Positions 12,064 to 26,172 of a stretch of DNA of 26,172 bases are shown here, one piece after another (positions within the stretch are counted from its first letter, which is position 1; every line of letters begins with the position of its first letter). Position numbers and translations under genes: made by a program. Source of the DNA: Candidatus Aenigmatarchaeota archaeon (GTDB taxonomy: Archaea > Aenigmatarchaeota > Aenigmatarchaeia > CG10238-14 > SCSR01); the NCBI GenBank assembly GCA_039000165.1, contig JAWBTW010000010.1:1-26172 (forward strand). The letters run 5' to 3'. The notes below the pieces were generated by a model. That model saw only the letters and a list, made by a program, of their open reading frames with translations, had not been told where the DNA came from and made no database searches.

Positions 12064-14385
12064 TTATAGTATGTTGTGCATAGCTTTTAAATCTTTCTCG
12101 AAAATCCTTAGTTCTTCTGGTATCCCTACTTTTATTGCTTCTTTTAATGAAACTCTTTTTTTCTTTTTTTCCTCCCAGACACTTGAATTAAACTCTACCA
12201 ACCTTTTAGTTAGTTTTGTTAATTCTTTTTTCCATTTTGGTTTCGGAAAAGTTTCTAGATGGATGCTTTTTTTAGAATAAAGTTCTCTCCAAATATAGTC
12301 TGTGATAAAAGGTGAGATAGGCGCGAGAAGAAGGAGGATTGTTTTTAAACAAGTATGTAAAGTAAACCATGCTGCCTCTTTCTCTTCTTTAGTAAATCCT
12401 TTTCCGTAAGCTCTTGGTTTAACCATTTCAATATAATGCGAAGCAAATAAGTTCCAAACAAATTCTCTTATTTTGTTCGAGGGTATGAAAAAGTTAAAGT
12501 CTTGATATCCTTTTAAGCATTCCTCTATCAGGTTACTTAACTCCGCTAAAATCCATTCGTCAGTTTTGGTTAATTTTGCTTTTTTTGGTTCTGGAAAAGA
12601 AGAGATGAACCTTGCAACGTTCCAAAACTTTGTCAAGAATTTTGAGTTAGCGAATATTCTTTGCTCAGAACACCTAAAATCATAGCCTAGGCTTGCTTCT
12701 TGAGCCCCCCAGAACCTAAAAGCATCGCTTCCATATTTTTCAAGAATAGGTAGAGGATCAATAACATTTCCTTTACTTTTGCTCATTTTTTCTCCCTTTT
12801 CATCAACTCCATATCCAGAAATCCAAACATGTTCGAAAGGTAATTTTTTAGTTATCTGATAACATCTTAGCAAAGTATAAAATAACCATGTCCTAACTAT
12901 ATCCTTCCCTTGTGGTCTTATGGCATTAGGATAGGTTTTTCTGAAAAAGTTTTTGTCCTCTAAGAACTTTGAAATGAACAAGGGAGAAATGCTAGAATCA
13001 AACCAAGTATCAAAAGTTCTTTCTTCACCGACGAACTCTTCCCCTTTACAGAAAGAGCATCTTGAAAAAGGTGGTTTTTCTCTCCATGGCTTGTAGTATT
13101 TTCCGGCCTTTGGAATGTTAGGCTTACCACATTTCTTACAATACCAAATTGGAATTTCAGTTCCATAAAACCTTCTCCTTGAAATAGGCCAATCTGTGGT
13201 TATGGAGTTGATCCAGTTGAGCAGTATCATCTTATGCTCTTTGGGATGAAACTTTATTTTTTCTATTCCTTTTTTCAATTCTTCCAAGAAAGGAATTTGC
13301 TTGAGATAGTATTCCTTCATAGGAATTATTTCTATAGGGGTTTTACTTCTATCGCACAGAGGAGTTCTGTGCCATATGTCTTCTATCTTTTTCACTAGTC
13401 CCATTTTTTGTAAATCTTCTATTATTCTTTTTCTTGCTTCTTCAATTTTTAGGCCAGCATATTTTCCTGCATTTTCTGTCATTTCGCCGTTTTCATTTAT
13501 GGCTATTATTTCCTTGAGCTTGAATTCCCTAAAAATTCTTACATCGCTTTGGTCTCCATAACTACAAACCATAGCGGCTCCTGTTCCAAAGTCGGGCTTC
13601 GCTTCTTTGCAAGGAATTATCGGAACTTCTTTTTCATAGATTGGAGTTATAGCATGCTTACCTTGTAAACTTTTATATCTTTCGTCTTCAGGATGGACTA
13701 TTATTGCCTGACAAGAACAAAGAAGTTCAGGTCTTGTCGTGGCAATAGTCAAATCTTTTCCTGTTTCTTTTACTTTAAAGTTTATATAAACAAGCTTGGT
13801 GGGCAGTTCTTCATACTCTATTTCAGCATCAGCTATAGTTGTTTTGCAATCTATGCAATAATTATTTGGCCTTGTGGCTTCATAGATTAAACCCTTGTTC
13901 CAGAGCCAGATGAAAGTTGTTTGGGTAAGTTTTCTGTATTCTTCGCTATCGGTGCGATAATAATTCTCAAAATCTCCGCTAATTCCAACCATTTTCATGA
14001 TTTTTATGAAAACTTTTTCAACATCATCTAAAGAATGTTTACACAACTCTATGAATTTTTCTCTTTCAACCTCATGCAATCTTATGTTGTATTTTTTTTC
14101 TGTGTAAAGTTCGACTGGTATACCATTCCTGTCAATCCCTATAGGAAAATAAACTTCAAAACCAAACATTCTTGCGGTTCTTGCTATCATATCTATCTGA
14201 GAATAATGAACAACAGCACCAATATGCCAAGGTAAGCCTGAAGGGTAAGGTGGAGGAGTGTCTATGGTAAAAATTTTTCCCTTTGTCTTTGTGCTTAAAG
14301 AAAAAATTTTTTCTTTTAACCATTCTTGCGAGATTTTTTCTTCTAGCTTTATGTCCCATCTTTTCTCTTTAAGTCTTGGCTCCAT
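12064..14385 (-). CDS. valS: Valine--tRNA ligase, archaeal type
   Basis: IDTPPPY, HIGA (HIGH variant), ATTRPEL editing motif, WPISRRR and KMSKSKGN; start ATG 14385 or GTG 14394. Confidence 0.96.
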   Translation of the reverse strand: MEPRLKEKRWDIKLEEKISQEWLKEKIFSLSTKTKGKIFTIDTPPPYPSGLPWHIGAVVHYSQIDMIARTARMFGFEVYFPIGIDRNGIPVELYTEKKYNIRLHEVEREKFIELCKHSLDDVEKVFIKIMKMVGISGDFENYYRTDSEEYRKLTQTTFIWLWNKGLIYEATRPNNYCIDCKTTIADAEIEYEELPTKLVYINFKVKETGKDLTIATTRPELLCSCQAIIVHPEDERYKSLQGKHAITPIYEKEVPIIPCKEAKPDFGTGAAMVCSYGDQSDVRIFREFKLKEIIAINENGEMTENAGKYAGLKIEEARKRIIEDLQKMGLVKKIEDIWHRTPLCDRSKTPIEIIPMKEYYLKQIPFLEELKKGIEKIKFHPKEHKMILLNWINSITTDWPISRRRFYGTEIPIWYCKKCGKPNIPKAGKYYKPWREKPPFSRCSFCKGEEFVGEERTFDTWFDSSISPLFISKFLEDKNFFRKTYPNAIRPQGKDIVRTWLFYTLLRCYQITKKLPFEHVWISGYGVDEKGEKMSKSKGNVIDPLPILEKYGSDAFRFWGAQEASLGYDFRCSEQRIFANSKFLTKFWNVARFISSFPEPKKAKLTKTDEWILAELSNLIEECLKGYQDFNFFIPSNKIREFVWNLFASHYIEMVKPRAYGKGFTKEEKEAAWFTLHTCLKTILLLLAPISPFITDYIWRELYSKKSIHLETFPKPKWKKELTKLTKRLVEFNSSVWEEKKKKRVSLKEAIKVGIPEELRIFEKDLKAMHNIL

Positions 14386-14431
14386 TTTGCCCACTTCGTG
14401 ATAAATAAATTTTTTTCTTAAATAATTAAAT

Positions 14432-15142
14432 CTATACGAACCTTGAAATTCCTGGTTTTAAATCTTTTTCTGTATCGATTATTACTATGTCTTTGTTCAA
14501 GGGAAAGGCAACGTTATATACTGGTACTTTATCAATCCAGGCTTGCTTTGTTCCTCTGTGCGAATGACCATGAATCACTAAATTTGGTTTTCTTTCGATC
14601 AAGACCTTTTCATACTTTTGTGAGCCTAAGTTTGGATAAAAATTAGGGTTTTCTCCTTGTAAAGTCTTGTAAGTAGGAGAATAATGAATAAGGAGAATTT
14701 TAAAATCAGCAAAAATTCTTTGCAAATAGCGATCCACAAAGTTGATTCTTTCCTCGTAGATTTTCTCGATGTTTGGAACGTTTTTTTTCTGCCAGGTAGT
14801 TGGTATATCCAAGCTTCCCGTAGTACCAACAATTCCAACAGAAATATCTTTTACAGTTATTATTACACTTTCATCATCAAGAAACTTTATTTCCTTATAA
14901 CTTGACTTAATTTTTTCTCTTAAATCTTGGTATTCATTATTTCCAAAACAGGCAACTATAGGGCAAGCGATTTTACCAAAAAGGACATTATTCACTTTTT
15001 CGTATTCTCTCAAATCACCTCTTTCTATCATATCTCCCGCTATCAGAAAAAGGTCAGGCTTTACTCTTAAATTGTCAACTGCTCTAACAAAATCTTCATA
15101 ATAATGCGGGCTATGGATATCTGCAGTAGCTGCTATTATCAT
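14432..15142 (-). CDS. Calcineurin-like metallophosphoesterase
   Basis: DIH, AGD, GNNE, HY and HGHSH motifs. Confidence 0.9.
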   Translation of the reverse strand: MIIAATADIHSPHYYEDFVRAVDNLRVKPDLFLIAGDMIERGDLREYEKVNNVLFGKIACPIVACFGNNEYQDLREKIKSSYKEIKFLDDESVIITVKDISVGIVGTTGSLDIPTTWQKKNVPNIEKIYEERINFVDRYLQRIFADFKILLIHYSPTYKTLQGENPNFYPNLGSQKYEKVLIERKPNLVIHGHSHRGTKQAWIDKVPVYNVAFPLNKDIVIIDTEKDLKPGISRFV

Positions 15143-15250
15143 AATTTTCTTTTAAAAATTGGGAAAAGGAAAACTTATTTTTATCTTTTAAATGTCACTA
15201 CCGATAAGTATTTAAATTTAACCTTCTATAAAGTGAGTAAAGGTGATGCT

Positions 15251-15598
15251 GTGATATTCCAGAAAGAGGAAGACTGGAAGAACTTTTTGAACGATGAAGC
15301 AAAAGAAATCTTAGCTAAGCTGTTGGATTCAACGAGGAAGCATAGGGCTGCATACTTGCAAGCAGAAGATGTAAAAGTTGCTCAGTTGTGGTGTGCTCTA
15401 GTAGAGCTTCAGAAACAATTTTCTCAATTGACAGAAACTATCAAGAGAATAGAAGAACCTTTCAAAGCAATAGTAGCCATAGGCGAAGCAGAAAAAAGAA
15501 AAACAATAGAAAGATTAGTGACAGAAATAATTAAACCAGAAGAAGAAGCAGAAAAGGAAGCAACTCAAAAGTTGGTAGACAGCCTGATGAAATTCTAA
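15251..15598 (+). CDS. Hypothetical coiled-coil protein
   Basis: GTG start at 15251 preceded by an AGGTGA SD-like site; helical, charged sequence (AEDVKVAQLWCALVEL). Confidence 0.7.
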   Translation: MIFQKEEDWKNFLNDEAKEILAKLLDSTRKHRAAYLQAEDVKVAQLWCALVELQKQFSQLTETIKRIEEPFKAIVAIGEAEKRKTIERLVTEIIKPEEEAEKEATQKLVDSLMKF

Positions 15599-15828
15599 AA
15601 CACAACCTCAACCTCAACTTTTCCTATTCCTTTAACTTTTTTAGCTTTTTGTTTAATCTCTTCTGTTAAATAGTTTATCATGGGACAAAAAGGTGTAGTA
15701 GGCTTAAACTTAATTTTAACGTTCTTCCCTTTTACTTCTATTCCTTTTATCATCCCCATACTAACTACATCTATACCTGTTTCTGGATCTATCGCTTTTC
15801 TTAGTGCTTCTAAAACTTTTTCTTTCAT
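15595..15828 (-). CDS. Metal-sulfur cluster assembly factor (DUF59/SufT family)
   Basis: AIDPETGIDVVSMGMI and PTTPFCP motifs. Confidence 0.9.
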   Translation of the reverse strand: MKEKVLEALRKAIDPETGIDVVSMGMIKGIEVKGKNVKIKFKPTTPFCPMINYLTEEIKQKAKKVKGIGKVEVEVVF

Positions 15829-15860
15829 TCTTTTTTATTTTAGGCTTTCTATTTTTAAAT

Positions 15861-16334
15861 ATGAGAAGAAACTTGATTTTACAAGTGCTTCTTATAATTT
15901 TCATAACTTTTACGATAAGGGAAACAGTTTATTACTTTTACCTCGGAGGAAAGCTTGACGTTTACTTTATTTTAAATTCCTTGTTCTTTCTCATAGGAGT
16001 TTATGCAGGTTACATTTCTTTAATGCTCTTTAACCAGCTCAAAAAAGAACAGGAGATTTCTATGCTTAGTATTTTCCTTTCTTTTAAGGAGTTTAAAGAT
16101 GAAATTAGGTTTTTGTATCTCTTTTCTCTTATAGCCGCAACGAGTTTTTTTGCCTATTCAATTTCTTACGGGGCTCAAATTTTTATCGAAACACTTAAAC
16201 ATCTTGAATGGCTTACGAACACACTTTTTTTAATCTCTCTTACTTCTTTTTTAATCTTCATAATTTCCTTTATCTTTCTTGTTAGAAAATGGGAAAAGAG
16301 GTTCGAAAAATATGGAGGTTTGGGAAGTTATTAA
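15861..16334 (+). CDS. Hypothetical polytopic membrane protein
   Basis: About 4 hydrophobic segments; ATG 15861 avoids overlap with the DUF59 gene. Confidence 0.7.
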   Translation: MRRNLILQVLLIIFITFTIRETVYYFYLGGKLDVYFILNSLFFLIGVYAGYISLMLFNQLKKEQEISMLSIFLSFKEFKDEIRFLYLFSLIAATSFFAYSISYGAQIFIETLKHLEWLTNTLFLISLTSFLIFIISFIFLVRKWEKRFEKYGGLGSY

Positions 16335-16656
16335 CTTCGTAGTCTATTTTTTTGTTGCAATTCTTTTTTCTTTAGTTACAACCTATGCTAGAAAATTCTT
16401 GAAAAATCTAGAAGAAAACGAAAAGCTTGCAGCTTCTCTAATTTTTCTTAATCCAAAAGTGCCAAAATGTTTCGGCATTTTAAGCATAATTCTTTTTGCT
16501 TTTTCGATAGCTTTTTTACTTTCGCCTTTTTATGAGTTTTACTTTCGCTCAAGCCTTTTTGTAATAATCATTTCGACTTATCTTTTACTTTTTGCTTTCG
16601 TTTACTTTTTTAAAACTCTTTGTGAGACAACAAAAAGTGAAGAATATGGAGGTTAG
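16312..16656 (+). CDS. Hypothetical membrane protein, about 3 TM
   Basis: MEVWEV start overlapping the upstream gene end; three hydrophobic helices. Confidence 0.7.
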   Translation: MEVWEVINFVVYFFVAILFSLVTTYARKFLKNLEENEKLAASLIFLNPKVPKCFGILSIILFAFSIAFLLSPFYEFYFRSSLFVIIISTYLLLFAFVYFFKTLCETTKSEEYGG

Positions 16657-17017
16657 AACCGAACTAGAAAAGGTATTAAAAGAAATGAAGAAAATAGAAG
16701 GAGTAAGAGGAAGCTTAATAGCTAACAAAGAGGGATTGCTCGTGGCTTCCTACCTTCCTGCTGAGCTTGACGCTAGACTCTTAGCTGCTTTGGCTGCAAC
16801 TTTAGTGAAAGTTTCAAACATGACAACTGAAAGATTGGGAATGGGTACTTTTACTCATACTGTGGTTAAAGCCTCTCAAGGTTATTATGTTTGCTTCCCG
16901 ATTGATACTGAAATGATTTTAGCATGCTTACTAGAAAAGGATGTTAATCTTGGTTTAGTTTTGGTTAGAATGGAAGAGAGTATAAAAGAAATAGGAAAAG
17001 TTTTAAGAAGTTTTTAG
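16646..17017 (+). CDS. Roadblock/LC7 domain protein
   Basis: GVRGSLIANKEGLLVAS, LAALAA and NLGLV motifs typical of roadblock/MglB-like folds. Confidence 0.9.
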   Translation: MEVRTELEKVLKEMKKIEGVRGSLIANKEGLLVASYLPAELDARLLAALAATLVKVSNMTTERLGMGTFTHTVVKASQGYYVCFPIDTEMILACLLEKDVNLGLVLVRMEESIKEIGKVLRSF

Positions 17018-17089
17018 TGGACTGGCCGGGATTTGAACCCGGAACTTCCGCCTTGCGAAGGCGGCGATCTACCGTTGATCTACCAGCCC
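17018..17089 (-). tRNA. tRNA-Ala(CGC)
   Basis: GGGCTGG/CCAGTCC acceptor stem with G3:U70, CCGCC-TTCGCAA-GGCGG anticodon arm, TTCAAAT T-loop. Confidence 0.96.
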
Positions 17090-17131
17090 TTGATAAAATG
17101 AATTTTATTTTTGATTTAAATAATTTAATTT

Positions 17132-17902
17132 ATGGAAAGGCTTCTTTTTGATGCGATAAGTTTTGCGAAAAGAGCAGGGCTTTTGCTCTTGAAAGATTTT
17201 AGAAAAGTTAAAGAATACTCAAAAAGAGGCCATAGCAAAGCAATAAAAACTATTTATGATAAAGCTTCTGAAAATTTGATAAAAAAGCTTATTTCAGCAA
17301 AGTATCCTGAGCATAGCATTTTGTCAGAAGAAACAGGTTATGTTGAAAAGGATTCTAAGTATTTGTGGGTTGTTGATCCTCTAGATGGAACAGGAAATTT
17401 TGTTAACGGTAATCCTTTGTTTTCTGTTTCCATAGCCTTTTTAGAAAATAACAAACTGAAATACGGAGCAATATACTTTCCAGTTTCTAACGAAACCTTT
17501 TTCGCAGAAAGAGGAAAAGGAGCTTTTCTAAACGGAAAAAGAATTTTTGTCTCAAAAATAGATAAGCTAGAAAAAAGCTATTTTGTAACTTGTGAAGGCG
17601 TAGAAAAAAGTAAGAAAAGAAAGGCAAAGCTTTACTCTACAATAATATCAAAAGCAGTTGATATAAGGAAGCTTGGTTCAGGAAGCTTAGAGTGTGCTTG
17701 GGTTGCTTCAGGAAGGGCAGAGGCTTACTTAACTTTTAAAGTTCCACCTTGGGATGTTGCTGCAGGAGTTTTATTAGTAGAAGAGGCAGGAGGAAGAGTT
17801 ACTGATTTTAAAGGAAGGGAATGGAGTTTAAGGCAATGTGATTTTTTGGCTTCAAATTCTTTGGTTCATGAAAAAGTTTTAAAATTGTTAAAAGGCATTT
17901 AA
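17132..17902 (+). CDS. suhB: Inositol monophosphatase family protein
   Basis: SEE, WVVDPLDGTGNF and WDVAAG..LVEEAGG motifs. Confidence 0.93.
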   Translation: MERLLFDAISFAKRAGLLLLKDFRKVKEYSKRGHSKAIKTIYDKASENLIKKLISAKYPEHSILSEETGYVEKDSKYLWVVDPLDGTGNFVNGNPLFSVSIAFLENNKLKYGAIYFPVSNETFFAERGKGAFLNGKRIFVSKIDKLEKSYFVTCEGVEKSKKRKAKLYSTIISKAVDIRKLGSGSLECAWVASGRAEAYLTFKVPPWDVAAGVLLVEEAGGRVTDFKGREWSLRQCDFLASNSLVHEKVLKLLKGI

Positions 17903-18328
17903 CATTTTTTTAAATTCTTTTATTTGCTCTTTTGCTACAGGTTGAAGCTTAACTTTTATTTTATTCAAATTAAACCATTTAATATCACAAACATCACTTC
18001 CTGCTTTTAATTTGCCCCCAACAATCTTTGTTTTAAAACAAAAAACCAAGTGATGATGATTATCATGAAACTCTTGAGTTAAGTGAAAAAGTTCTAAAGG
18101 TTTTATTTTAAGACTAGTTTCTTCTTTAGTTTCTCTTATTAAAGCTTCTTCCAAGGTTTCTCCTGCTTTTACCTTTCCTGTAGGAAGACCCCAAAATCCT
18201 GGAAAAGCTTTTTTTGATCTCTTTCTCTTGACTAATAAAATTTTTCTATCTTTTTCAATCAAAGCACTAACAACTGCTGAAATCTTTCTTGGAGTTTTAA
18301 TGTTTCTTTTAACTGTACAAATTTTCAT
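17888..18328 (-). CDS. NUDIX hydrolase
   Basis: Nudix box GKVKAGETLEEALIRETKEETSL. Confidence 0.9.
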   Translation of the reverse strand: MKICTVKRNIKTPRKISAVVSALIEKDRKILLVKRKRSKKAFPGFWGLPTGKVKAGETLEEALIRETKEETSLKIKPLELFHLTQEFHDNHHHLVFCFKTKIVGGKLKAGSDVCDIKWFNLNKIKVKLQPVAKEQIKEFKKMLNAF

Positions 18329-18346
18329 AAGATTTTATTGTTTTTA

Positions 18347-19465
18347 TTAAAACTTATTATTTGGTACAAGACTTTTCAGTCTTTTTAAAGCCTCTACTTT
18401 TTCTTTTTTCTCTATTTCAGCTTGCTTTAGAATTTCATCTAAAAATCTTATTGATTCGTCCATAGCTTTTCTTTCTATTGGCTTAGGAACACCATCCTTG
18501 CCACCGTAAGCATAAGAGTATTTTACTGGGTCTTTCCAGCTTGGCTCTGAGCCATAAATTATTTCAGAAACTAAGGCTAAACCTCTTACAGTAGAAGGGC
18601 CTATACCTTTTATCCCTAAGAGCTCTTCGTAATTTTTTGGCTGAAACTCATAAGCTTCTTTCAAAGCATCCCAGTTAACATTTCTCGGCATCTTTAAAAC
18701 ATGAACAAAAAACTCTTTTCTTTTAAAAGGTAGAAATTGAGTTAAACTTTTTTGATAAATTGGCTTTATTGATAAGAAGTCATTTCTAATTTTTTGTGGT
18801 CCTTCTTTTACTAAATCGACTGAAATTTTTCTTGCTTCTTCGCTTTGCTTAGCTGTCATATCTAAAACATTTTCTTTTCTTATATCGCAGCAAATTGCAG
18901 AATGAGGCTCTTCAACAAAACTTTTAACGTTTTCAGAAATCCAATGGTACCTGCGAGCAGTTTTATCTTGAATATTCATTCCCTGTTGAACAACAACCCA
19001 AGATTTTTCTGTAAAGAAAAATGTGTGATGGTATAAAGGATACTCGCATTGGATAGCAGTGTTATCTACTTTTGCGCTCATTCTACTTGCGTATTTTAAT
19101 TCTTCAATTTTTTTTGATGAAAAAGAAAGAATTTCGCTAATTTTTTCTATTTCTTCTGGAGTTTTTCTTGAAAACTTTCCTTTTCCACCTGCTATTCCCA
19201 AGCCAAATTTTTCTGGTCGAATAACAGATTTAAGAATAGCGCATACAGTAGTAGTAACTCCTGAAGAATGCCAATCGTGCCCTATAACACAACCAAAAGC
19301 TTGAAACCAGAAAGGGTTTGAAACTCTCCTTAGCAATTCCTCCTTTCCATATTCTTCTATGATTAGAGTAGCAATTTGTTCTCCTAATTTTTTCATCCTT
19401 ACCAAAAGCCAGAAAGGTACATGCCCGTAATGTAAAGGAAGTTCTGCAATCCCGGTTTTTTTCAT
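18347..19465 (-). CDS. DUF763 domain protein
   Basis: AELPLHYG, WHSSGVTT, AKVDNTAIQ, VVQQGMN, ARRYHW, HhH-like GIGP and GGKDGVP motifs; ATG 19465. Confidence 0.88.
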   Translation of the reverse strand: MKKTGIAELPLHYGHVPFWLLVRMKKLGEQIATLIIEEYGKEELLRRVSNPFWFQAFGCVIGHDWHSSGVTTTVCAILKSVIRPEKFGLGIAGGKGKFSRKTPEEIEKISEILSFSSKKIEELKYASRMSAKVDNTAIQCEYPLYHHTFFFTEKSWVVVQQGMNIQDKTARRYHWISENVKSFVEEPHSAICCDIRKENVLDMTAKQSEEARKISVDLVKEGPQKIRNDFLSIKPIYQKSLTQFLPFKRKEFFVHVLKMPRNVNWDALKEAYEFQPKNYEELLGIKGIGPSTVRGLALVSEIIYGSEPSWKDPVKYSYAYGGKDGVPKPIERKAMDESIRFLDEILKQAEIEKKEKVEALKRLKSLVPNNKF

Positions 19466-19588
19466 GAGTTTCACTTGGCCTATCAAAATTTATTTTAAAA
19501 TAAAGTTAATTAGATTTTTGGAAGTAAATTTCCACTGATTCCGATTCATTAAAAATAAAAGTTATTAGGTTAATTAAATTTTATAGCT

Positions 19589-19663
19589 GGACAGGTGGCG
19601 CAGCCTGGTTAGCGCAATCGGCTGATAACCGATAGGTCGAGGGTTCAAATCCCTCCCTGTCCA
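19589..19663 (+). tRNA. tRNA-Ile(GAU)
   Basis: GGACAGG/CCTGTCC acceptor stem, ATCGG-CTGATAA-CCGAT anticodon arm, TTCAAAT T-loop. Confidence 0.96.
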
Positions 19664-19787
19664 TTGAATTTCAAGCATTTTATTGTCTTATCTTTTTATT
19701 GTGAAAAAGTAAAGATTTTAAATTCTTTGTTTACTCACAAACATTTAGGATTAAAGCTTAAAAATAGCAATTTACAAGTTTGATTTG

Positions 19788-20405
19788 ATGAAAGGTTTGT
19801 TCATAGTATTTGAAGGAATTACCGGCTCTGGAAAAAAAACTCACATAAAGCTTTTAGCAGAAAAACTGAAAGAAAAGGGTAAAGAAGTTACTGTAATTTC
19901 ATTTCCAAATTATGAAAGTGAGATAGCAAGATTTACGAAGAGAGCTGATTTGGACGCTTATACACAATCTTTACTTTTTGCTGCTGATAGAAGCCTTCAT
20001 CAAGAGAGAATAAAAGGTTTGCTTGAAAAAGGAAACATAATACTCTGCGACAGATATTGTTACAGTAACTTTGCTTATCAGGCAGCAAAGGGTTTGTCCT
20101 TAGATTGGCTTAAGGAAATAGAAAAGCATAACATTAAACCTGATATCGTTTTTTTGATTGATGTGCCTGTTGAAATCAGCATGAATAGGGTTAAACAACT
20201 AAGCATAGAAGATTTCACCAAAAAAGAAATACTAGAGAGGTTGGAAAGAGAAAAGGACTTCTTGGAAAAAATAAGGGAGGTTTATTTGAATTTGGCTGTA
20301 ACTGATAAAGAAACTAAATGGTTTGTTATTAATGGTTCAGAGGATATTTCTGTGAATCATGAAAAGATTTGGAAAAAGGTAAAGGAAGAGCTTAAAATTG
20401 AGTAG
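19788..20405 (+). CDS. tmk: Thymidylate kinase family protein with variant P-loop
   Basis: FIVFEG..GSGK, LLFAADR, DRYCYSNFAYQ and KPDIVFLID motifs. Confidence 0.85.
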   Translation: MKGLFIVFEGITGSGKKTHIKLLAEKLKEKGKEVTVISFPNYESEIARFTKRADLDAYTQSLLFAADRSLHQERIKGLLEKGNIILCDRYCYSNFAYQAAKGLSLDWLKEIEKHNIKPDIVFLIDVPVEISMNRVKQLSIEDFTKKEILERLEREKDFLEKIREVYLNLAVTDKETKWFVINGSEDISVNHEKIWKKVKEELKIE

Positions 20406-20440
20406 AATTTTAAAATATCTAAATTAGATTATTGCTTTTT

Positions 20441-20511
20441 TGTTAGATACTAACATTAAAAAAACTTAATTGTCTGGTAGGGTTAATGTTTGTTTTGTTA
20501 GACGTCTAACA
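20441..20511. promoter_or_regulatory. Palindrome pair upstream of tRNA-Glu: TGTTAG-ATA-CTAACA (20441-20455) and TGTTAG-ACGT-CTAACA (20496-20511)
   Basis: Same half-sites as the palindrome at 8119-8134; a TATA-like TTTTAAAA follows at 20535-20542. Confidence 0.6.
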
Positions 20512-20560
20512 TAAAAAAATTTAAGAATTAAAACTTTTAAAAGAAATTTATCTTTAGAAT

Positions 20561-20635
20561 GCCCCCTTCGTCTAGTCCGGCTAAGGATACGAGCCTTTCG
20601 AGCTCGGGACACGGGTTCAAATCCCGTAGGGGGCA
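20561..20635 (+). tRNA. tRNA-Glu(UUC), probable integration target
   Basis: GCCCCCT/AGGGGGC acceptor stem, CGAGC-CTTTCGA-GCTCG anticodon arm, TTCAAAT T-loop; integrase gene follows immediately. Confidence 0.96.
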
Positions 20636-20667
20636 TTACGGCACAACCACAAATCCCTAACCTATAA

Positions 20668-21966
20668 GTGAATGAGGGGAAAAGTGGTTGTGTGAAAGAG
20701 GAAGTTTATAGGTTTGATAGAAGAATTGAAAGTTCATTAAAGCACATAGAAAACTCAGATATTCTCGAAGAGAACAAGCAAAAGATTTTCGACTTTTACC
20801 ACGAATGCATAGTAAGAGGTTATAGTAAAGCTAGAATTTTAAAATACCTTTCAACTCTTTTATCTCTTGCTAAACTTTTGGGTAAACCTTTTGTTGATGC
20901 TAGGAAAGAGGACATTATAGAAGTTATTGCCAAAATAGAACAAAGTAACTATTCAGATTGGACTAAGCACGACTTTAAATCCATTTTAAAGGTATTTTTC
21001 AAATGGTTAAGAAAAACAGAAGATTATCCAGAAGAAGTTAGATGGATAAAGGTTACCTCTAAGTCAAGAGTAAAACTTCCAGAGGAACTTCTAACGGTGG
21101 AAGAAGTCCTTAAAATGGTAAATGTTGCGGAGCATATAAGGGATAAAGCCTTTGTTCTCACGCTATATGAATCTGGATGCAGAATAGGAGAATTGTTAAC
21201 TCTTCAAATAAAACATGTACATTTTGACAAATTTGGAGCTACGCTTATAGTAAACGGAAAGACTGGCCAAAGAAGGGTAAGAGTAATCTTATCAACCCCA
21301 AAACTCAACCAATGGATAGAGAACCATCCGTTAAAAGATAATCCAAACGCACCACTTTGGATCACTCTAGGAAAGAACAAAAGAGTTTGGCGTTATAGTA
21401 CAGCCAAAGACCTTATCAAAAAATTAGCAGAAAAAGCTGGAATCAAAAAGAGAGTTTATCCACACTTGTTTAGACACTCAAGAGCTACATACCTTGCAAA
21501 TTACCTCACTGAAGCTCAAATGAAACAGTATTTTGGATGGGTTCAAGGGAGCGAGATGGCAAGCATTTACGTGCATTTGAGTGGAAGAGATCTCGATAAA
21601 GCTTTACTGAGACTTAATGGGTTAGAGGAAGGAAGAGAACAGAAAGAAGAGGAATTAAAACCATTAATATGCCCGAGATGTAAAAATAACAATTCACCAG
21701 ACGCAAAGTTCTGTTCATTTTGTGGGATGTGCTTGGACGCTAAAACAAGCATAGAAATAGAGGAATTAAGGAACAGAGTTGATCAATTATTAACAGAACT
21801 TATTAAAAACCCAGAAGTGCTTGAAGTGTTAGTGAGAGGACTCGAGAGAGTGAATTCTGGAAGTAACTTATCGTTTAGCAACCAAATAATAAACAATGGT
21901 AGCGATAAAAGGGATAAGGGAATACAGAAAGGGAAAGATGGAAGTTCTCTTAAAGATAATAGATGA
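20668..21966 (+). CDS. Tyrosine recombinase/integrase with C-terminal zinc ribbon
   Basis: Catalytic residues R (ESGCRIGE), K (GKTG), HxxR (HLFR), W (FGW) and Y (IYVHL); CPRC..CSFC ribbon; start may be the in-frame GTG at 20692. Confidence 0.95.
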   Translation: MNEGKSGCVKEEVYRFDRRIESSLKHIENSDILEENKQKIFDFYHECIVRGYSKARILKYLSTLLSLAKLLGKPFVDARKEDIIEVIAKIEQSNYSDWTKHDFKSILKVFFKWLRKTEDYPEEVRWIKVTSKSRVKLPEELLTVEEVLKMVNVAEHIRDKAFVLTLYESGCRIGELLTLQIKHVHFDKFGATLIVNGKTGQRRVRVILSTPKLNQWIENHPLKDNPNAPLWITLGKNKRVWRYSTAKDLIKKLAEKAGIKKRVYPHLFRHSRATYLANYLTEAQMKQYFGWVQGSEMASIYVHLSGRDLDKALLRLNGLEEGREQKEEELKPLICPRCKNNNSPDAKFCSFCGMCLDAKTSIEIEELRNRVDQLLTELIKNPEVLEVLVRGLERVNSGSNLSFSNQIINNGSDKRDKGIQKGKDGSSLKDNR

Positions 21967-22132
21967 TCTTTCAAAAGATTACGGAGAAAACATTCCAGAA
22001 ACGCTTGTGATAGATTTAGCTAGAAAGAATGATGTTGAAAACCCGGAAGAAAAGCTTAGGTTTCTTGCCAAACATTTTGTTATAATTTACACTTCACTAA
22101 CGACTTTCAAGAAAACTTTTCCAAGCGTTTAA
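21896..22132 (+). CDS. Small winged-helix-like protein resembling the C-terminal wH domain of archaeal MCM
   Basis: Pattern LLKIIDDLSKDYGENIPETLVIDLARKNDVENPEEKLRFL...IIY matched by eye; overlaps the integrase 3' end. Confidence 0.55.
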   Translation: MVAIKGIREYRKGKMEVLLKIIDDLSKDYGENIPETLVIDLARKNDVENPEEKLRFLAKHFVIIYTSLTTFKKTFPSV

Positions 22133-22235
22133 TAGACTTATACTTATCTCTTAATATCCTAAACCATTCGGGCATCTTTTCAAGGATTTCTTCGTCTAAA
22201 TCTTCCAACAAAATTCGCTTAATTTCCTTTTTCAT
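22107..22235 (-). CDS. Small hypothetical protein, 42 aa, absent from the ORF track
   Basis: MKKEIKRILLEDLDEEILEKMPEWFRILRDKYKSIKRLEKFS*; GAGGT SD upstream; start overlaps the end of the previous minus-strand gene. Confidence 0.55.
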   Translation of the reverse strand: MKKEIKRILLEDLDEEILEKMPEWFRILRDKYKSIKRLEKFS

Positions 22236-22449
22236 AATCGACCTCTTCCAACCTATAAAACCTAAATTTTATTCTGTTGCTTTCAAGAGTCTTTATTAAA
22301 CCTTTAAGGAGCGAAAGAGATTCGACAAAGAAACTTGCATAAATTTTCTTTTTGTAAAGCCAAACGTTAAGCCTTTTAACATAAACAAAAAGAAGTTCCG
22401 CTAACTTTTCTACGCTTATCCTTTCGCATTCAATTTTTACAAAAAGCAC
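22219..22449 (-). CDS. Small hypothetical protein, 76 aa
   Basis: GTG start at 22449 with a GAGGAGG SD inside the 3' end of the orc1-like gene. Confidence 0.65.
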   Translation of the reverse strand: MLFVKIECERISVEKLAELLFVYVKRLNVWLYKKKIYASFFVESLSLLKGLIKTLESNRIKFRFYRLEEVDYEKGN

Positions 22450-23392
22450 CTTTATCCTCCTCAATTATTTCGTAGATCCTTCCTCTTTTTTCTCCGATAG
22501 CTCTAACAAAACCTTTTAAACAAAGATTTTGCATGTAATTTCTAAAAGCTCTCTCGCTTTTTGGATATTTTGTGTTTTGCAAGTAGAAATCGTAAAGCCT
22601 ACTTGCGGGCAAACTTTTCCATTCTTGGAGTATTTTTAAGAGAACTTTTTCATCGAAACTGAGTTTTACAGGGCAATCCTCTATTTCTGGTAAGTCAGAC
22701 TCTTCTATGCTTTTCTTTCCTTTGCTTTGAGCGTTTAACGCAGAAATTTTTAAAGTATTTATTCCCAAAGTTATGTTCCCTTTCACTTTTTCCGCGATTC
22801 TTTTTAAAATAGCATCGTTAAAACTCCATTTCGCGAGAGATTTTTCCGCCCTATCCTTTAAAATTTCAAGGGTTTGCTCAGGGGAGTAAGCCTGGATCCT
22901 TATAATACTCATGTTTGACCTAATGTTCTCTGTTAGCAGCGCTAAATTTTCTTCATCGTCTGAAATAAGTATTAAGCAAATTCCCATGCTCAAAAGTTGA
23001 GTTATAAGCGAGTAATCTTTCATACATTCAAAGTTGTCTAGACAAACAACAAATTTTCTTTCTTTTGTTTGCTTCATTAATTCTTTGATAAGTTCGTAGT
23101 TGCTCCTGTAGAAAATAAATTCGCTTTTTGGAACGATTTCTTTTAAAATACTATAGGTGGTCTGGTAAATGGCACAATCGACATAGCAAGGTAAAACTTT
23201 CTTGAATTCGTCTGAATAAAGAACCTTTTTAACAAGGGTTGATTTACCTGAACCACATGGTCCAACAATTATTGTGCTTACAAAGTTTTGTAGATTTGAT
23301 TTTAATTGTGATATTTCTTTTTCTCTGAAAAGCAGTTTTTGTGGTAGGTGGTTTGTTGAAAGAAATTCTGCGTTGACTAGAATTCCATTCAT
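22430..23392 (-). CDS. Orc1/Cdc6-like AAA+ replication initiator, divergent
   Basis: LSTNHLPQKLLFREKEI, Walker A GPCGSGKS, YVDC, AYSPEQTLEILKDRA and C-terminal wH (SERAFRNYMQNLCLKGFV); ATG 23392. Confidence 0.88.
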   Translation of the reverse strand: MNGILVNAEFLSTNHLPQKLLFREKEISQLKSNLQNFVSTIIVGPCGSGKSTLVKKVLYSDEFKKVLPCYVDCAIYQTTYSILKEIVPKSEFIFYRSNYELIKELMKQTKERKFVVCLDNFECMKDYSLITQLLSMGICLILISDDEENLALLTENIRSNMSIIRIQAYSPEQTLEILKDRAEKSLAKWSFNDAILKRIAEKVKGNITLGINTLKISALNAQSKGKKSIEESDLPEIEDCPVKLSFDEKVLLKILQEWKSLPASRLYDFYLQNTKYPKSERAFRNYMQNLCLKGFVRAIGEKRGRIYEIIEEDKGAFCKN

Positions 23393-23453
23393 GCGTAGAA
23401 ATTTTTCTAAAAAAGTAAAATCTGTTACGAGTGCATGGTTTTCCGTTATTCCG

Positions 23454-23963
23454 TTACTCGAAAACATAAGCTTTAGTTTTAAGTTCAGATTCATAGAATC
23501 TAAGGATCTTTTGTTCTACTTCTCCCTTTAAATAAGGACCTAATTTTTTGTTACTATGATTGTGAAACAACACAACACAATAATCCCAGTCCCCACTCAG
23601 AACGTTTAACGCAGCTTTTACTAAGGCTATTTTGTACCTTGATCCGGCGTTCTTGTTTGCATGATCCAATTCGATAGCTAATTTCCACGGCTTTTCTATT
23701 CTAATATCTGGAAACTGACCATAAGAACCAAAGATTTGCCTAGGTCTTCTGAGTATTCCTTTTCCCTCAACAGACACGCATTCTTTCACATTAAGAGTAG
23801 GAAAATACTCCTGAAATAGTTCCTCTACAAGGGAACCAGCAAGTCTTCTAGAGGCAACATCCCATTTCAAATTTTCATCTCTCATTTTTTCCAAAACTTT
23901 GTTAAATAAATCTCTAGTTTTGATGTGATCAACAAGTTTATCTATGAACTCTTGAACCTCCAT
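23454..23963 (-). CDS. Hypothetical protein, possible PD-(D/E)xK restriction-endonuclease-like fold
   Basis: FPDIRIEKPWKLAIELD motif followed by a helix and a hydrophobic strand (YCVVLF). Confidence 0.5.
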   Translation of the reverse strand: MEVQEFIDKLVDHIKTRDLFNKVLEKMRDENLKWDVASRRLAGSLVEELFQEYFPTLNVKECVSVEGKGILRRPRQIFGSYGQFPDIRIEKPWKLAIELDHANKNAGSRYKIALVKAALNVLSGDWDYCVVLFHNHSNKKLGPYLKGEVEQKILRFYESELKTKAYVFE

Positions 23964-24060
23964 GAAAATAACTTGCAAGCTTAAGTATTTTGAATTAACG
24001 GTATTTTACGCATAAGTTAGCATCTTCTATTAGTTCTTGCACTTTTAACTTGGTGGTTTG

Positions 24061-24210
24061 GTGAGAGGTTTTTGTCCAAAATGCAAAGAGTATAGGAGCG
24101 ACAACGGACAAGATGCTTGGAAAATTGTATGGCATAATAACCTGGCAATTTGTGAGAGATGTGGTTCAGTAATCGATTTGTGGATAAATGAAGATGAAAA
24201 CGAGGACTAA
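24061..24210 (+). CDS. Small C4 zinc-finger protein, 49 aa, absent from the ORF track
   Basis: MRGFCPKCKEYRSDNGQDAWKIVWHNNLAICERCGSVIDLWINEDENED*; GGTGGT SD-like site before the TTG/GTG start. Confidence 0.75.
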   Translation: MRGFCPKCKEYRSDNGQDAWKIVWHNNLAICERCGSVIDLWINEDENED

Positions 24211-24297
24211 TAAATGAAAAAATTGCCAAGATTTTTACTTCTCTCACACGAAAGCTCAAGTTTTCGGAAGGGTACAACCTAAAGATTTGGTGAGAGA

Positions 24298-25968
24298 ATG
24301 AAAAATAACCATTTGAATGATTACCATAAGTGGTATAAACAGGCATATGAACAAAGGTATGGGAAAGGAAGTTGGGAAAGAGATAGAGGAATAAGCATAA
24401 AAAGAGGAGGAGAAACTCCTTCCGGTTTCTGCCTGTATGAACCTGACTTTAAAAGGTATTGGAATGAAGAGAAGGCTATTGGGGTAATAGAAAGAAATGG
24501 GAAATTTATCGGGATAGCATGTTTGGTTGCAAAGGAAGTTACGGATAAGGAAAGTTTTGTTAGAAAATTTGGCTTAAGTTTCGAGAAAGATGTCCAGTGG
24601 CATGCGATTTCTGGTCTGCTTGATCATTTGTCAAGAAGTCCTATGTTTAAAGCTGTTTTGATAACTTTAAGTGATGTTCCATTTAAACTTGAACCAGACG
24701 TACCTGATGATTTACAAGGTAGAATAAATTGGACCAGAAGGAATTATGAGTATCATAAGGAAAAAGCTGAAAATCTTAAAAGATTAGTGGAGAAAAGATC
24801 TGGAGATTTTGGCGGAGTTATTCCTACTTATTTGCCAAAGCAAATGAAGGAAGAACAAGATCATGCAAGATATTTCCTCGAGCAAGTTAAGAGTTTGGAA
24901 AGTCAGATGCAAGAACATTTAAAGCAATACTTTATAATTAAAGAAAACCTATTTGCGTCAGCTTTATTCTTTTACGTTTACACTAGCCCAAAAGAAAATT
25001 TTGAAGATGCGGTAAGGGAAATTGAGAATAGAAAATACAGCGCGAAAATGGAGATAGTAAAAACTTATTTTGTTAAGTGTAGCGATGTAAAAGATCCTTT
25101 AATTGTTTTTAATCCAGAATTTTTTCCTCAATTTGAGGAAGTGAAAAAGTACTATTGTCTAACTTTAGCCCAAGATTGCGCAGGTTTTTCTTCGGATAAA
25201 GACGTTGCAATAGCTTTGAAGTATATGTTTACTAGCGTGCTTGAATTGCCTAAGGAAGAAGAAATAGAAGAACAAATTCACGTCCCAAGCGAAGAGGTAA
25301 GCATTCCGAGAGAAAGAACAGCTTTTATCGGTTACGTTGTTGAGTCTGTAGTTAAAAGGAAAATTAAGAAGAGAAGAGTTTACTTTCCTCTCAATATCTT
25401 AACTTCCCATGCGATAATTTATGGGAAAACAAGAGTTGGAAAAAGCTTCCTTTCTTTAATTTTAATCAACGAAGCTTTAGCAAATGGTATCAGGGTAATA
25501 GTATTCGATCCTCACGGCACTTTAGCAAGTAGACTCAAACCTAATCCCTTATTGGAAATCAACTTTACAAAGGGTAAAGTTGACATTTCAAATAATTTAG
25601 AGAGAATTTATGAAGAGGCATCGAACTGGCCTGAAACTAACGAATTAAGGCTTTTAATTGTTTTAGACGAGACAAGACTTTTGAAAGCAAAAAATCTTGT
25701 TTATTGCGTAAACGAATTAGGAAAGCGTGGAGTTGGTTTCCTTTTAATAACTCAATACTCTACAAGCATTCCTCCTGAAATAAGGAATGTAGGAACTTAT
25801 TTCATAATGTCAGCTATGAGCGAAACAGAGATCCAAAGGTTTAAGGAAATAACGCTTCACCCTTCGAGCAAATTAATAACAAGAATGCCAAGGGCGGTAA
25901 GCTTTATTTTCAGTCCTTATTGGTATCCTGAACCTTTCTTCATTAGGCACGTAAAAATTAGTAATTAA
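24298..25968 (+). CDS. HerA/FtsK superfamily (DUF87-like) P-loop ATPase with unrecognised N-terminal domain
   Basis: HAIIYGKTRVGKS Walker A, VIVFDPHG, LLIVLDE Walker B and LLITQ motif; GGTGA SD upstream. Confidence 0.85.
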   Translation: MKNNHLNDYHKWYKQAYEQRYGKGSWERDRGISIKRGGETPSGFCLYEPDFKRYWNEEKAIGVIERNGKFIGIACLVAKEVTDKESFVRKFGLSFEKDVQWHAISGLLDHLSRSPMFKAVLITLSDVPFKLEPDVPDDLQGRINWTRRNYEYHKEKAENLKRLVEKRSGDFGGVIPTYLPKQMKEEQDHARYFLEQVKSLESQMQEHLKQYFIIKENLFASALFFYVYTSPKENFEDAVREIENRKYSAKMEIVKTYFVKCSDVKDPLIVFNPEFFPQFEEVKKYYCLTLAQDCAGFSSDKDVAIALKYMFTSVLELPKEEEIEEQIHVPSEEVSIPRERTAFIGYVVESVVKRKIKKRRVYFPLNILTSHAIIYGKTRVGKSFLSLILINEALANGIRVIVFDPHGTLASRLKPNPLLEINFTKGKVDISNNLERIYEEASNWPETNELRLLIVLDETRLLKAKNLVYCVNELGKRGVGFLLITQYSTSIPPEIRNVGTYFIMSAMSETEIQRFKEITLHPSSKLITRMPRAVSFIFSPYWYPEPFFIRHVKISN

Positions 25969-26172
25969 GAAGTTTCCTTAATACCGGGTCTTAAGATTAT
26001 AAGTTAAACCAGTTAAATTTTAAAAAAGGGGGAAACGCTTCAATTTTCATAATACGAACTATTTTATTTATTATCTTTAAAGGCAAAAATGGAATTTTCC
26101 CCGCTAGCAACATTCATCATATTTATGCATTAATACATAGTCTATGCCTTACAGAATTGAAATCTTCATAGG

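Follow-up and report, generated by a model that had tools for sequence, protein, structure and literature searches.

A probable plasmid-like integrative element at a tRNA-Glu gene of an Aenigmatarchaeota genome belongs to a conserved family with members in several archaeal phyla

Plasmids of the pT26-2 family integrate into archaeal chromosomes at tRNA genes. They are described from Thermococcales and Methanococcales as a conserved core combined with a variable region, one of the core proteins being HerA/VirB4/B204-like (Badel et al. 2019, PMC6972569). The cryptic integrated elements (CIE) of Thaumarchaeota, as characterized by Krupovic et al. (2019, PMC6563490), encode a tyrosine integrase but lack signature genes of viruses or conjugative elements, and some of them, e.g., NitAQ6f-E1, carry a Cdc6/Orc1 homologue presumed to recruit the host replisome. 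Their attachment (att) sites are short (median of 17 bp, down to 8 bp), and mobility is proven in that account by an empty site in a close relative (PMC6563490). In archaeal "dark matter" islands, HerA-like (arCOG00280), Orc/Cdc6 (arCOG00467), and integrase genes are reported among the commonest genes and as associated with viruses or plasmids, and PD-(D/E)XK nucleases are connected with integrated elements that resemble plasmids (Makarova et al. 2014, PMC4158269). Few descriptions exist of mobile elements in DPANN archaea; in Aenigmarchaeota, inovirus-like proviruses have been reported (Roux et al. 2019, PMC6813254). A paper on Asgard mobile genetic elements makes no mention of Orc1 or HerA. 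Here, we analyzed an entire contig of 26172 bp (C10; the window) from an Aenigmatarchaeota genome of 783 kb in 25 contigs (G000). What occupies positions 20637-26172 of the window is probably the left part of an element that is integrative and plasmid-like (a "cryptic integrated element") and that recombined into the 3′ end of a tRNA-Glu(UUC) gene; several archaeal phyla have members of the conserved family to which this copy belongs. The size of the genome and the Aenigmatarchaeota labels of its closest public records fit the DPANN host that an earlier note, made from the letters of the window, had regarded as probable.

The locus resembles the CIE in being a multigene element with a tyrosine integrase, a Cdc6/Orc1-like gene, and an empty site in a relative, and its candidate crossover core of ~13 nt fits the short att sites given for them. 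It differs in gene content and hosts: CIE have no specific signature genes according to their description (PMC6563490), whereas the family reported here is marked by a hallmark Zn-finger protein and HerA-type ATPase, together with the families f2, f3, and f5, and its host range includes DPANN and Bathyarchaeia, which sets it apart from the thaumarchaeal elements as these are described. Transmembrane helices are reported for 9 of 12 conserved pT26-2 proteins (PMC6972569) but occur in none of the conserved families here, and the SSV-type integrase genes used by the pT26-2 family are split upon integration, unlike the integrase gene of this element, which stays whole; compared by description, the pT26-2 family is also said to be limited to two orders. 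The dark matter islands share with the locus the same three kinds of genes (matched by kind, not by arCOG assignment) but represent a statistical association rather than a defined element family. The inovirus-like proviruses are likewise integrated in members of this phylum and combine an integrase with a P-loop morphogenesis ATPase, whereas the element described here, again compared by description, has an Orc1-like gene and neither a Zot/pI match nor small coat-like membrane proteins. Full-text literature searches returned no description of this gene set. The family is apparently new and undescribed, and a cryptic integrative plasmid at a tRNA gene belongs to a well-known kind.

The DNA in question is an insertion relative to a genome of the same genus (G001). 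That genome is 97% identical to window positions 16991-19665 and carries tmk and tRNA-Glu without the element; its tRNA-Glu shares the last 37 nt with that of the window and is followed by unrelated DNA. Approximately 1 kb past the tRNA gene, G001 equals G000:C1:1-8118 at 96.5% over 8.1 kb, and this colinearity with both the C10 flank and C1 gives the order C10, gap, C1 in G000. Since the empty site is clean and the flanks are 97% identical, the insertion is recent. The empty-site comparison suggested in the earlier note thus found its empty tRNA-Glu in G001, and the element is also absent behind the tRNA-Glu of two further genomes of the genus, G003 and G005. In G003, the first gene of the right flank (product starting MPFVY) is the counterpart of a gene starting at about G000:C1:66. 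The host has an Orc1 of its own (C3:36562-37590, 279 bits, above the cut-off) and a separate tyrosine recombinase (C6:43349-43831, 167 bits to PF00589) that we read as the host XerA from its size and its XerA-like counterparts in relatives rather than from a score on the XerA model. None of 60 relatives has a close homologue of the ATPase or the Orc1-like gene of the element. The best ATPase match among them reached 31.8 bits in the P-loop region only, compared with 1270 for the self-match. The Orc1-like query retrieved proteins that are 24-33% identical, mostly as one full-length match per genome, a level that it also reaches against host Orc1 (31%, 83 bits). The integrase family is patchy in these relatives, with copies that are 35-50% identical, several per genome in some cases, and many fragments. 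The proposal of an integrative element at the 3′ end of tRNA-Glu is supported by the empty site in G001, the separate host Orc1 and XerA, the 60 relatives lacking close homologues of the Orc1-like and ATPase genes, and homology to a related locus that starts from the tRNA end. Against an element, the note had named a lack of the right attachment site (attR) together with genes that are syntenic and fixed across relatives as core chromosome; attR is missing from this assembly, whereas the genes proved neither syntenic nor fixed.

That related locus (L064, an Aenigmatarchaeota metagenome-assembled genome [MAG]) is colinear with window positions 20631-25940 at 78.6% nucleotide identity; the homology thus extends from the tRNA end into the final codons of the ATPase gene. 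The integrase (Table 1) scores 73 bits on PF00589 (cut-off, 27.1) and has a sub-threshold Zn-ribbon match at residues 335-353 (20.5 versus a cut-off of 25); its motifs CRIGE (171), GKTG (197), HLFRH (266), and IYVH (300) were assigned to the catalytic site by eye. With 124 bits on the XerA model NF040815 (cut-off, 220), it falls outside the archaeal XerA proteins. Its gene is not split by the integration, and the protein is 69% identical in L064. Upstream of the integrase gene (int), 11 of 18 other full-length integrase loci have an alignable region with three repeats, which reads as a promoter-like TTTAAA box, GTGGTTGTG, ~27 nt, CACAACCAC, ~33 nt, and GTGGTTGTG. The window keeps the two right repeats, whereas the tRNA takes the place of the whole region left of TTACGG. 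In L079, where this position is free of a tRNA, the last 13 nt of tRNA-Glu (CCCGTAGGGGGCA) lie at the aligned position, and the same motif occurs only once in G000. We read this as a site resembling an element attachment site (attP-like), with a core that would mimic the tRNA 3′ end and a crossover within ~13 nt. Of 11 loci that carry integrase homologues in the relatives, 7 have a tRNA gene of the same orientation directly upstream (one of the seven, with a T-loop insert, read by eye). In the mechanism that we propose, the integrase would recombine the short core of the attP-like site just 5′ of its own gene, the core standing in for the last ~13 nt of the tRNA and the site carrying 9-bp inverted repeats (GTGGTTGTG/CACAACCAC). 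The tRNA would remain intact, int would be parted from the promoter-like sequence found ahead of int in copies that have not recombined, and in the excised circle the right end of the element would join TTACGGCACAACCAC.

The window holds only the left part of the element, which continues beyond the contig: the window being the entire contig, the element extends past the assembly edge. Its last 29 nt match the starts of f2 genes in L105, L117, L074, L120, L077, and L114 (blastn), the consensus start of this family being MPYRVDIYIG, and no overlap was found between the tail of C10 and other contig ends. We aligned to the window the Logan contigs of four public hot-spring runs, in which depths refer to contigs and not to copy numbers. 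In run X1, a contig over the host flank (depth of 61) stops at 20637, contigs of the element have depths of 83-92, and a tail from 25848 (depth of 15.9) reaches ~196 nt past the window. Runs X7 (20 differences in 3.4 kb) and X12 contain near-identical element DNA that diverges from the window at 25943, and X5 has 1237 extra bases at 26023/26034. Assembly branching at the tRNA end and at the cargo slot described below explains where the contig ends. Another X7 contig parts from the window at 20651 and is similar to a relative's attP-like left arm in reverse complement; we did not count it as an attP junction because it shares only ~12 nt with the window.

Ten loci of the family were found in GTDB genomes (two in Aenigmatarchaeota, five in Bathyarchaeota/Bathyarchaeia, and one each in Archaeoglobaceae, Nitrososphaeria, and Methanobacteriota). 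Two of the ten occupy contigs of 2.0 and 1.16 Mb, and metagenomes added 74 further loci. Clustering of 1313 open reading frames (ORFs) from these 84 loci and the window placed the ATPase in 81 of the 83 loci besides the window. Across the family, the Zn-finger protein and the ATPase are 57-98% identical. Co-occurring genes are those for the Orc1-like protein (38 loci), f2 (35; 96 aa), f3 (35; 224 aa, with a Zn ribbon), the Zn-finger protein (25), f5 (24; 120 aa), an N6/N4 DNA methylase (24), f7 (22), and the integrase (21), the Orc1-like and integrase counts including the window. The gene combination, which had appeared unusual and unrecognized to the earlier note, is therefore not unique but common to a widespread archaeal family. 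Pfam, PHROGs, and PDB sequence searches gave no answer on the functions of f2, f3, f5, f7, and f10 (the PDB rows for f2 and f3 are at chance level), and no hydrophobic segments were found in the conserved families. A scan for capsid and type IV secretion system (T4SS) genes, also suggested in the earlier note, recognized none in the element or in 83 related loci, and the same holds for membrane genes. Variable cargo lies mostly between the ATPase and f2 genes and includes type I restriction-modification (R-M), SNF2/NOV_C, an AbiEii pair, an MBL nuclease, an SMC/OLD-like ATPase, and GGACT. In L064, BREX genes (BrxL and PglZ) are located directly behind f10/f18 (13855-19969). The presence of BREX, type I R-M, AbiEii, and SNF2/NOV_C in these loci suggests that the family carries defence systems, and we propose that the spot between ATPase and f2 would take up such cargo, being empty in this copy. 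In L129, three ORFs (828, 825, and 851 aa) that resemble the L064 BREX genes in size and order occupy the same spot.

The hallmark ATPase belongs to the FtsK/HerA superfamily. Its C-terminal FtsK/HerA-type P-loop domain follows an N-terminal part of ~340 aa with no recognized fold, and the DUF87/HerA central domain scores 36.5 bits (cut-off, 23.2). Foldseek searches with its low-confidence structure model retrieved VirB4, EccC, HerA, TcpA, FtsK, and B204 (E of 4e-7 to 1e-4), structural matches that set the superfamily and not the role. A PDB profile search returned no match to the ATPase, the ESM Atlas added nothing to DUF87/HerA/FtsK, and the Zot/pI family is absent from its Pfam matches at E values up to 0.1. 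A collection of 5.8 billion proteins contains 177 homologues, which are 65-98% identical among the matches listed (119 besides the query). The Zn-ribbon protein encoded immediately upstream is 86% identical in L064, its family (f4) occurring in 25 loci. The two proteins would most likely form a DNA translocase, which could serve segregation, act as a replication helicase, or mediate cell-to-cell transfer. HerA-type P-loop domains also occur in G000 inside very long open frames (C16:11079-11375 and C15:2475-2624, in frames of 2332 and 1168 aa) and, in relatives, in open frames of 3,000-13,000 aa.

Transfer between cells is the tenet of one alternative, in which the locus is an integrative conjugative or mobilizable element and the ATPase a coupling protein of the VirD4/TraG/TcpA type or a Ced-like translocase. 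In MAGs labeled Aenigmatarchaeota, Nitrososphaerota, or Bathyarchaeota, NCBI annotates some close homologues as members of a type IV secretory system conjugative DNA transfer family, NCBIfam yields weak matches to CedD and TraD coupling proteins (E of 2e-7 to 1e-5, far below the cut-offs), Foldseek retrieves VirB4 and TcpA, and the family is present in several phyla. These matches, however, are limited to the P-loop region (residues ~327-414). TrwB_AAD_bind reaches 16.5 bits against a cut-off of 20.5 and the TraD models 24-30 bits against 366-648, so that the ATPase falls outside the type IV coupling proteins, and the conserved genes include no VirB4 partner, pilin, VirB6, or membrane protein. 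We regard this alternative as very unlikely. The ATPase might instead be a packaging motor, as B204 is in Sulfolobus turreted icosahedral virus (STIV), one of the double-jelly-roll viruses, in a temperate archaeal virus with unrecognizable capsid genes. Consistently with such a provirus, Foldseek lists B204 of STIV and STIV2 (E of 2e-5 to 8e-5; TM-score to target of 0.64-0.66), the ATPase and the Orc1-like protein match a PHROG terminase large subunit (weakly, E of 3e-4) and phrog_7998 (E of 4e-16), respectively, and the conserved but functionally unassigned f2, f3, f5, f7, and f10 could be structural; HerA-like and Orc/Cdc6 genes are also called virus associated in the account of archaeal dark matter islands (PMC4158269). 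Yet 2.9 million IMG/VR contigs hold no relatives of the ATPase or of the Orc1-like protein, Pfam and PHROGs reveal no capsid, portal, or tail family, the conserved families are devoid of membrane segments, and an ATPase of 556 aa with a large N-terminal part contrasts with the ~200 aa of B204. A provirus is thus improbable.

The Orc1-like protein aligns over its full length to NF001624 (E of 3e-25) and TIGR02928 (E of 5e-22), below the cut-offs of both models (89 versus 354 bits and 78 versus 181 bits, respectively). It has a Walker A motif (GPCGSGKS) at residue 78 and a sub-threshold Cdc6_lid match, is 83% identical in L064, and falls in a clade of its own that is separate from host Orc1. A second Orc1-like gene lies directly 5′ of the integrase gene in many loci, and these copies form clades apart from the "inner" ones in a tree rooted on host Orc1. 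We read the protein as a putative divergent member of the superfamily and not as an orthologue of the cellular initiator. It would most likely recruit host replication proteins and thereby start the replication of the excised circle. The neighbouring 174-aa protein, labeled nuclease-like in the earlier note, has no Pfam or PDB sequence match; the label finds support in a confident structure model (predicted local distance difference test [pLDDT] score of 92) that resembles restriction endonuclease folds. VIA-align gives BamHI and BstYI a Z score of 7.3, with nearly all of the 50 rows being nucleases of this fold (Z values of <8 can reflect a common arrangement), and Foldseek finds restriction endonuclease folds at E values of 0.04-0.3. 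Residues E71, D91, E103, D105, K116, and K121 are invariant in 11 sequences, i.e., the protein and its 10 homologues. This putative PD-(D/E)XK-fold protein may be an accessory that cuts DNA or resolves junctions.

Another alternative is a defence island rather than a replicon, with the ATPase, the nuclease-fold protein, the Zn finger, and the Orc1-like (STAND-like) NTPase acting as an antivirus system on an integrase. The defence cargo of related loci (BREX with BrxL and PglZ, type I R-M, AbiEii, and SNF2/NOV_C) agrees with this possibility, as do weak PADLOC matches of the ATPase to mad8 (E of 8e-10) and HerA (E of 4e-4) and of f3 to a SIR2 model (E of 1e-6), the SIR2/HerA complex listed by Foldseek, and a Pfam NB-ARC score of the Orc1-like protein just over the cut-off (25.4 versus 23.5 bits). 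None of the PADLOC matches is convincing, however, and f3 has no Pfam SIR2 match. The Orc1-like protein aligns full length to cellular Orc1, lid and winged helix (wH) included, at ~30% identity, and the genes travel together as one block, along with an integrase and an att-like end. We therefore give a defence island very little credence.

Several results weigh against the interpretation of the locus as a mobile replicon integrated at tRNA-Glu. Exact k-mers of 12-25 nt, blastn-short, and motifs of 9-13 nt run over the 25 contigs of G000 located no second copy of the tRNA-Glu 3′ end of at least 9 nt (T-arms of other tRNAs gave the only further matches). The downstream direct repeat of the tRNA 3′ part, which the earlier note had proposed to look for, is thus missing from the assembly, and with it the direct repeats that define an integrated element; as the contig ends inside the element, attR would be located in DNA beyond the assembly. 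ARAGORN detected a tRNA beside the integrase gene in none of the 18 other integrase loci. An unbroken attP-like region occurs on contigs of 0.4-2 Mb (L104, as well as L066 and L092 with other repeats), which is unexpected if it is the sole attachment site, and no second copy of the attP-like core lies within 10 kb in 11 loci. Searches for direct repeats in L064, L066, and L067 and for core copies in the 11 loci yielded only chance matches of 11-13 nt, and none of 24 complete related contigs has the terminal repeats of a circular form. The Walker B motif of the Orc1-like protein reads LDNFE instead of containing DE, and positions 20500-26172 contain no set of repeats resembling origin recognition boxes; the self-replication inferred in the earlier note would depend on the Orc1-like gene, and no origin was found. 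The ATPase model is poor, with a pLDDT of 59 overall and ~66-86 over most of residues 340-490. Finally, tblastn with 17 proteins of related loci found no f2, f3, or f5 elsewhere in G000 and retrieved one weak winged helix-turn-helix match.

The missing attR and the lack of all downstream family genes in the assembly would also be expected of a dead remnant, i.e., an old insertion that lost its right part and is no longer mobile, and an obvious scar of a related element does exist at tRNA-Leu(UAG) in G000 and G001. The eight genes are nevertheless all intact, the contig ends inside f2 rather than in host DNA, near-identical copies with other right-hand continuations are present in other samples, and the clean empty site of G001 with its 97%-identical flanks marks the insertion as recent. 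A remnant is unlikely on these grounds, and a recently integrated plasmid-like element is the reading that we retain.

As such, the locus offers a clean and recent insertion, for which a sister genome shows the empty site, and it is tied to a large family that resides in at least Aenigmatarchaeota and Bathyarchaeia chromosomes. Its integrase, attP-like site, and Orc1-like initiator make the family a candidate backbone for archaeal vectors, the cargo slot is a defined hotspot at which the spread of archaeal defence systems could be studied, and the very conserved ATPase is worth a structure and an assay. A bolder and rather unlikely view would take the locus as the first recognized DPANN copy of cross-phylum integrative replicons that possess a hallmark Zn finger plus HerA-type pump, attP sites imitating the final ~13 nt of different tRNAs, and one fixed cargo slot, and that move defence systems (BREX, type I R-M, AbiE, and others) between distant archaea; this traffic could include exchange between DPANN symbionts and their hosts, with the ATPase as a transfer or packaging motor of a novel apparatus.

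Table 1. Features of the window at and downstream of tRNA-Glu.
Feature	Position	Strand	Basis or remark
tRNA-Glu(UUC), intact; probable integration target and left part of the left attachment site (attL)	20560..20636	+	ARAGORN; last 37 nt identical in G001
Candidate crossover core CCCGTAGGGGGCA (T-stem 3′ strand, acceptor 3′ strand, and discriminator)	20623..20635	+	Also in L079
Conserved left end of the element, TTACGG-CACAACCAC...GTGGTTGTG	20637..20693	+	9-bp inverted repeats at 20642-20650 and 20684-20692
Tyrosine integrase with Zn ribbon and C-terminal tail, 432 aa	20668..21966	+	PF00589
78-aa ORF overlapping the integrase 3′ end	21896..22132	+	Weak MCM_WH_arc match
42-aa ORF, no assigned function	22107..22235	-	86% identical in L064
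81-aa ORF, no assigned function	22219..22464	-	In 13 other loci
Divergent Orc1/Cdc6-like AAA+ protein, 354 aa	22430..23494	-	Sub-cut-off NF001624 and TIGR02928 matches
174-aa protein, predicted restriction endonuclease-like (PD-(D/E)XK) fold	23454..23978	-	Structure model
50-aa Zn-ribbon protein (CxxC...CxxC), always immediately 5′ of the ATPase	24058..24210	+	Family f4
Hallmark ATPase, 556 aa	24298..25968	+	DUF87/HerA
Spacer between ATPase and f2, cargo insertion spot of the family, empty here	25969..26143	.	Cargo there in other loci
Start of f2, 29 nt (MPYRIEIFI-), cut by the contig end	26144..26172	+	blastn

ARAGORN and the ORF list reproduced the gene order given in the earlier note, i.e., tRNA-Glu, integrase, the minus-strand run, the Zn-finger ORF, and the ATPase. 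All eight ORFs are intact and retain the same order in L064 at 69-86% amino acid identity, which identifies them as genuine genes and not chance ORFs. The element and its flanks are alike in GC content. The ORF given there as 76 aa exists with a length of 81 aa; its family occurs in 14 loci, and an intact 78-aa paralogue is located beside tRNA-Leu(UAG) on C1. The so-called wH microprotein corresponds to the 78-aa ORF, which is 78% identical in L064 and present in six other loci; the wH label itself comes from a sub-threshold match to MCM_WH_arc (E of 0.004), and the product is a possible winged-helix accessory or directionality factor. A 47-aa family related to the 42-aa ORF occurs in four loci.

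Elsewhere in the genome, G000:C19:6445-8433 is a CRISPR array with 29 repeats of 30 nt and 28 spacers. Comparison of these 28 spacers with the element, the 84 loci, and the rest of the genome gave nothing better than matches of 15-16 nt, or of 19 nt with one mismatch.

The stretch from tRNA-Ile to tRNA-Glu is variable in the genus. G001 has extra DNA at window positions 19665-19750 and 20412-20487 (L062, 2677-3181 and 3843-4563), with a 79-aa winged-helix-like ORF between tRNA-Ile and tmk and a 202-aa membrane protein between tmk and tRNA-Glu. Short palindromes lie 5′ of tRNA-Glu, GTTAGATACTAAC (20442-20454) and GTTAGACGTCTAAC (20497-20510), and the stretch around the latter has dozens of short matches across the genomes of the genus, which would fit an intergenic repeat or promoter element present genome-wide. 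The tRNA-Glu(UUC) genes of G005 (L046, ~1867-1962) and G003 (L044, reverse, ~147-243) contain an 18- to 19-nt T-loop insert that is absent from G000 and G001, and these genes go undetected by ARAGORN. In G003, contig C111 (L149, reverse, ~1133-1390) has a small ORF, labeled Cas2-like by eye, between tRNA-Glu and the conserved gene of the right flank.

Behind tRNA-Leu(UAG), G000:C1:16946-17299 shows the same type of end, TTAC(C/G)GCACAACCAC, along with the intact 78-aa paralogue of the 81-aa ORF and an Orc1-like fragment (72% identical, one stop). This remnant is an old scar left by a related element. At the same tRNA-Leu(UAG), G001 (L148, ~6579-6625) keeps ~45 nt of this end, plus 2.8 kb of other genes.

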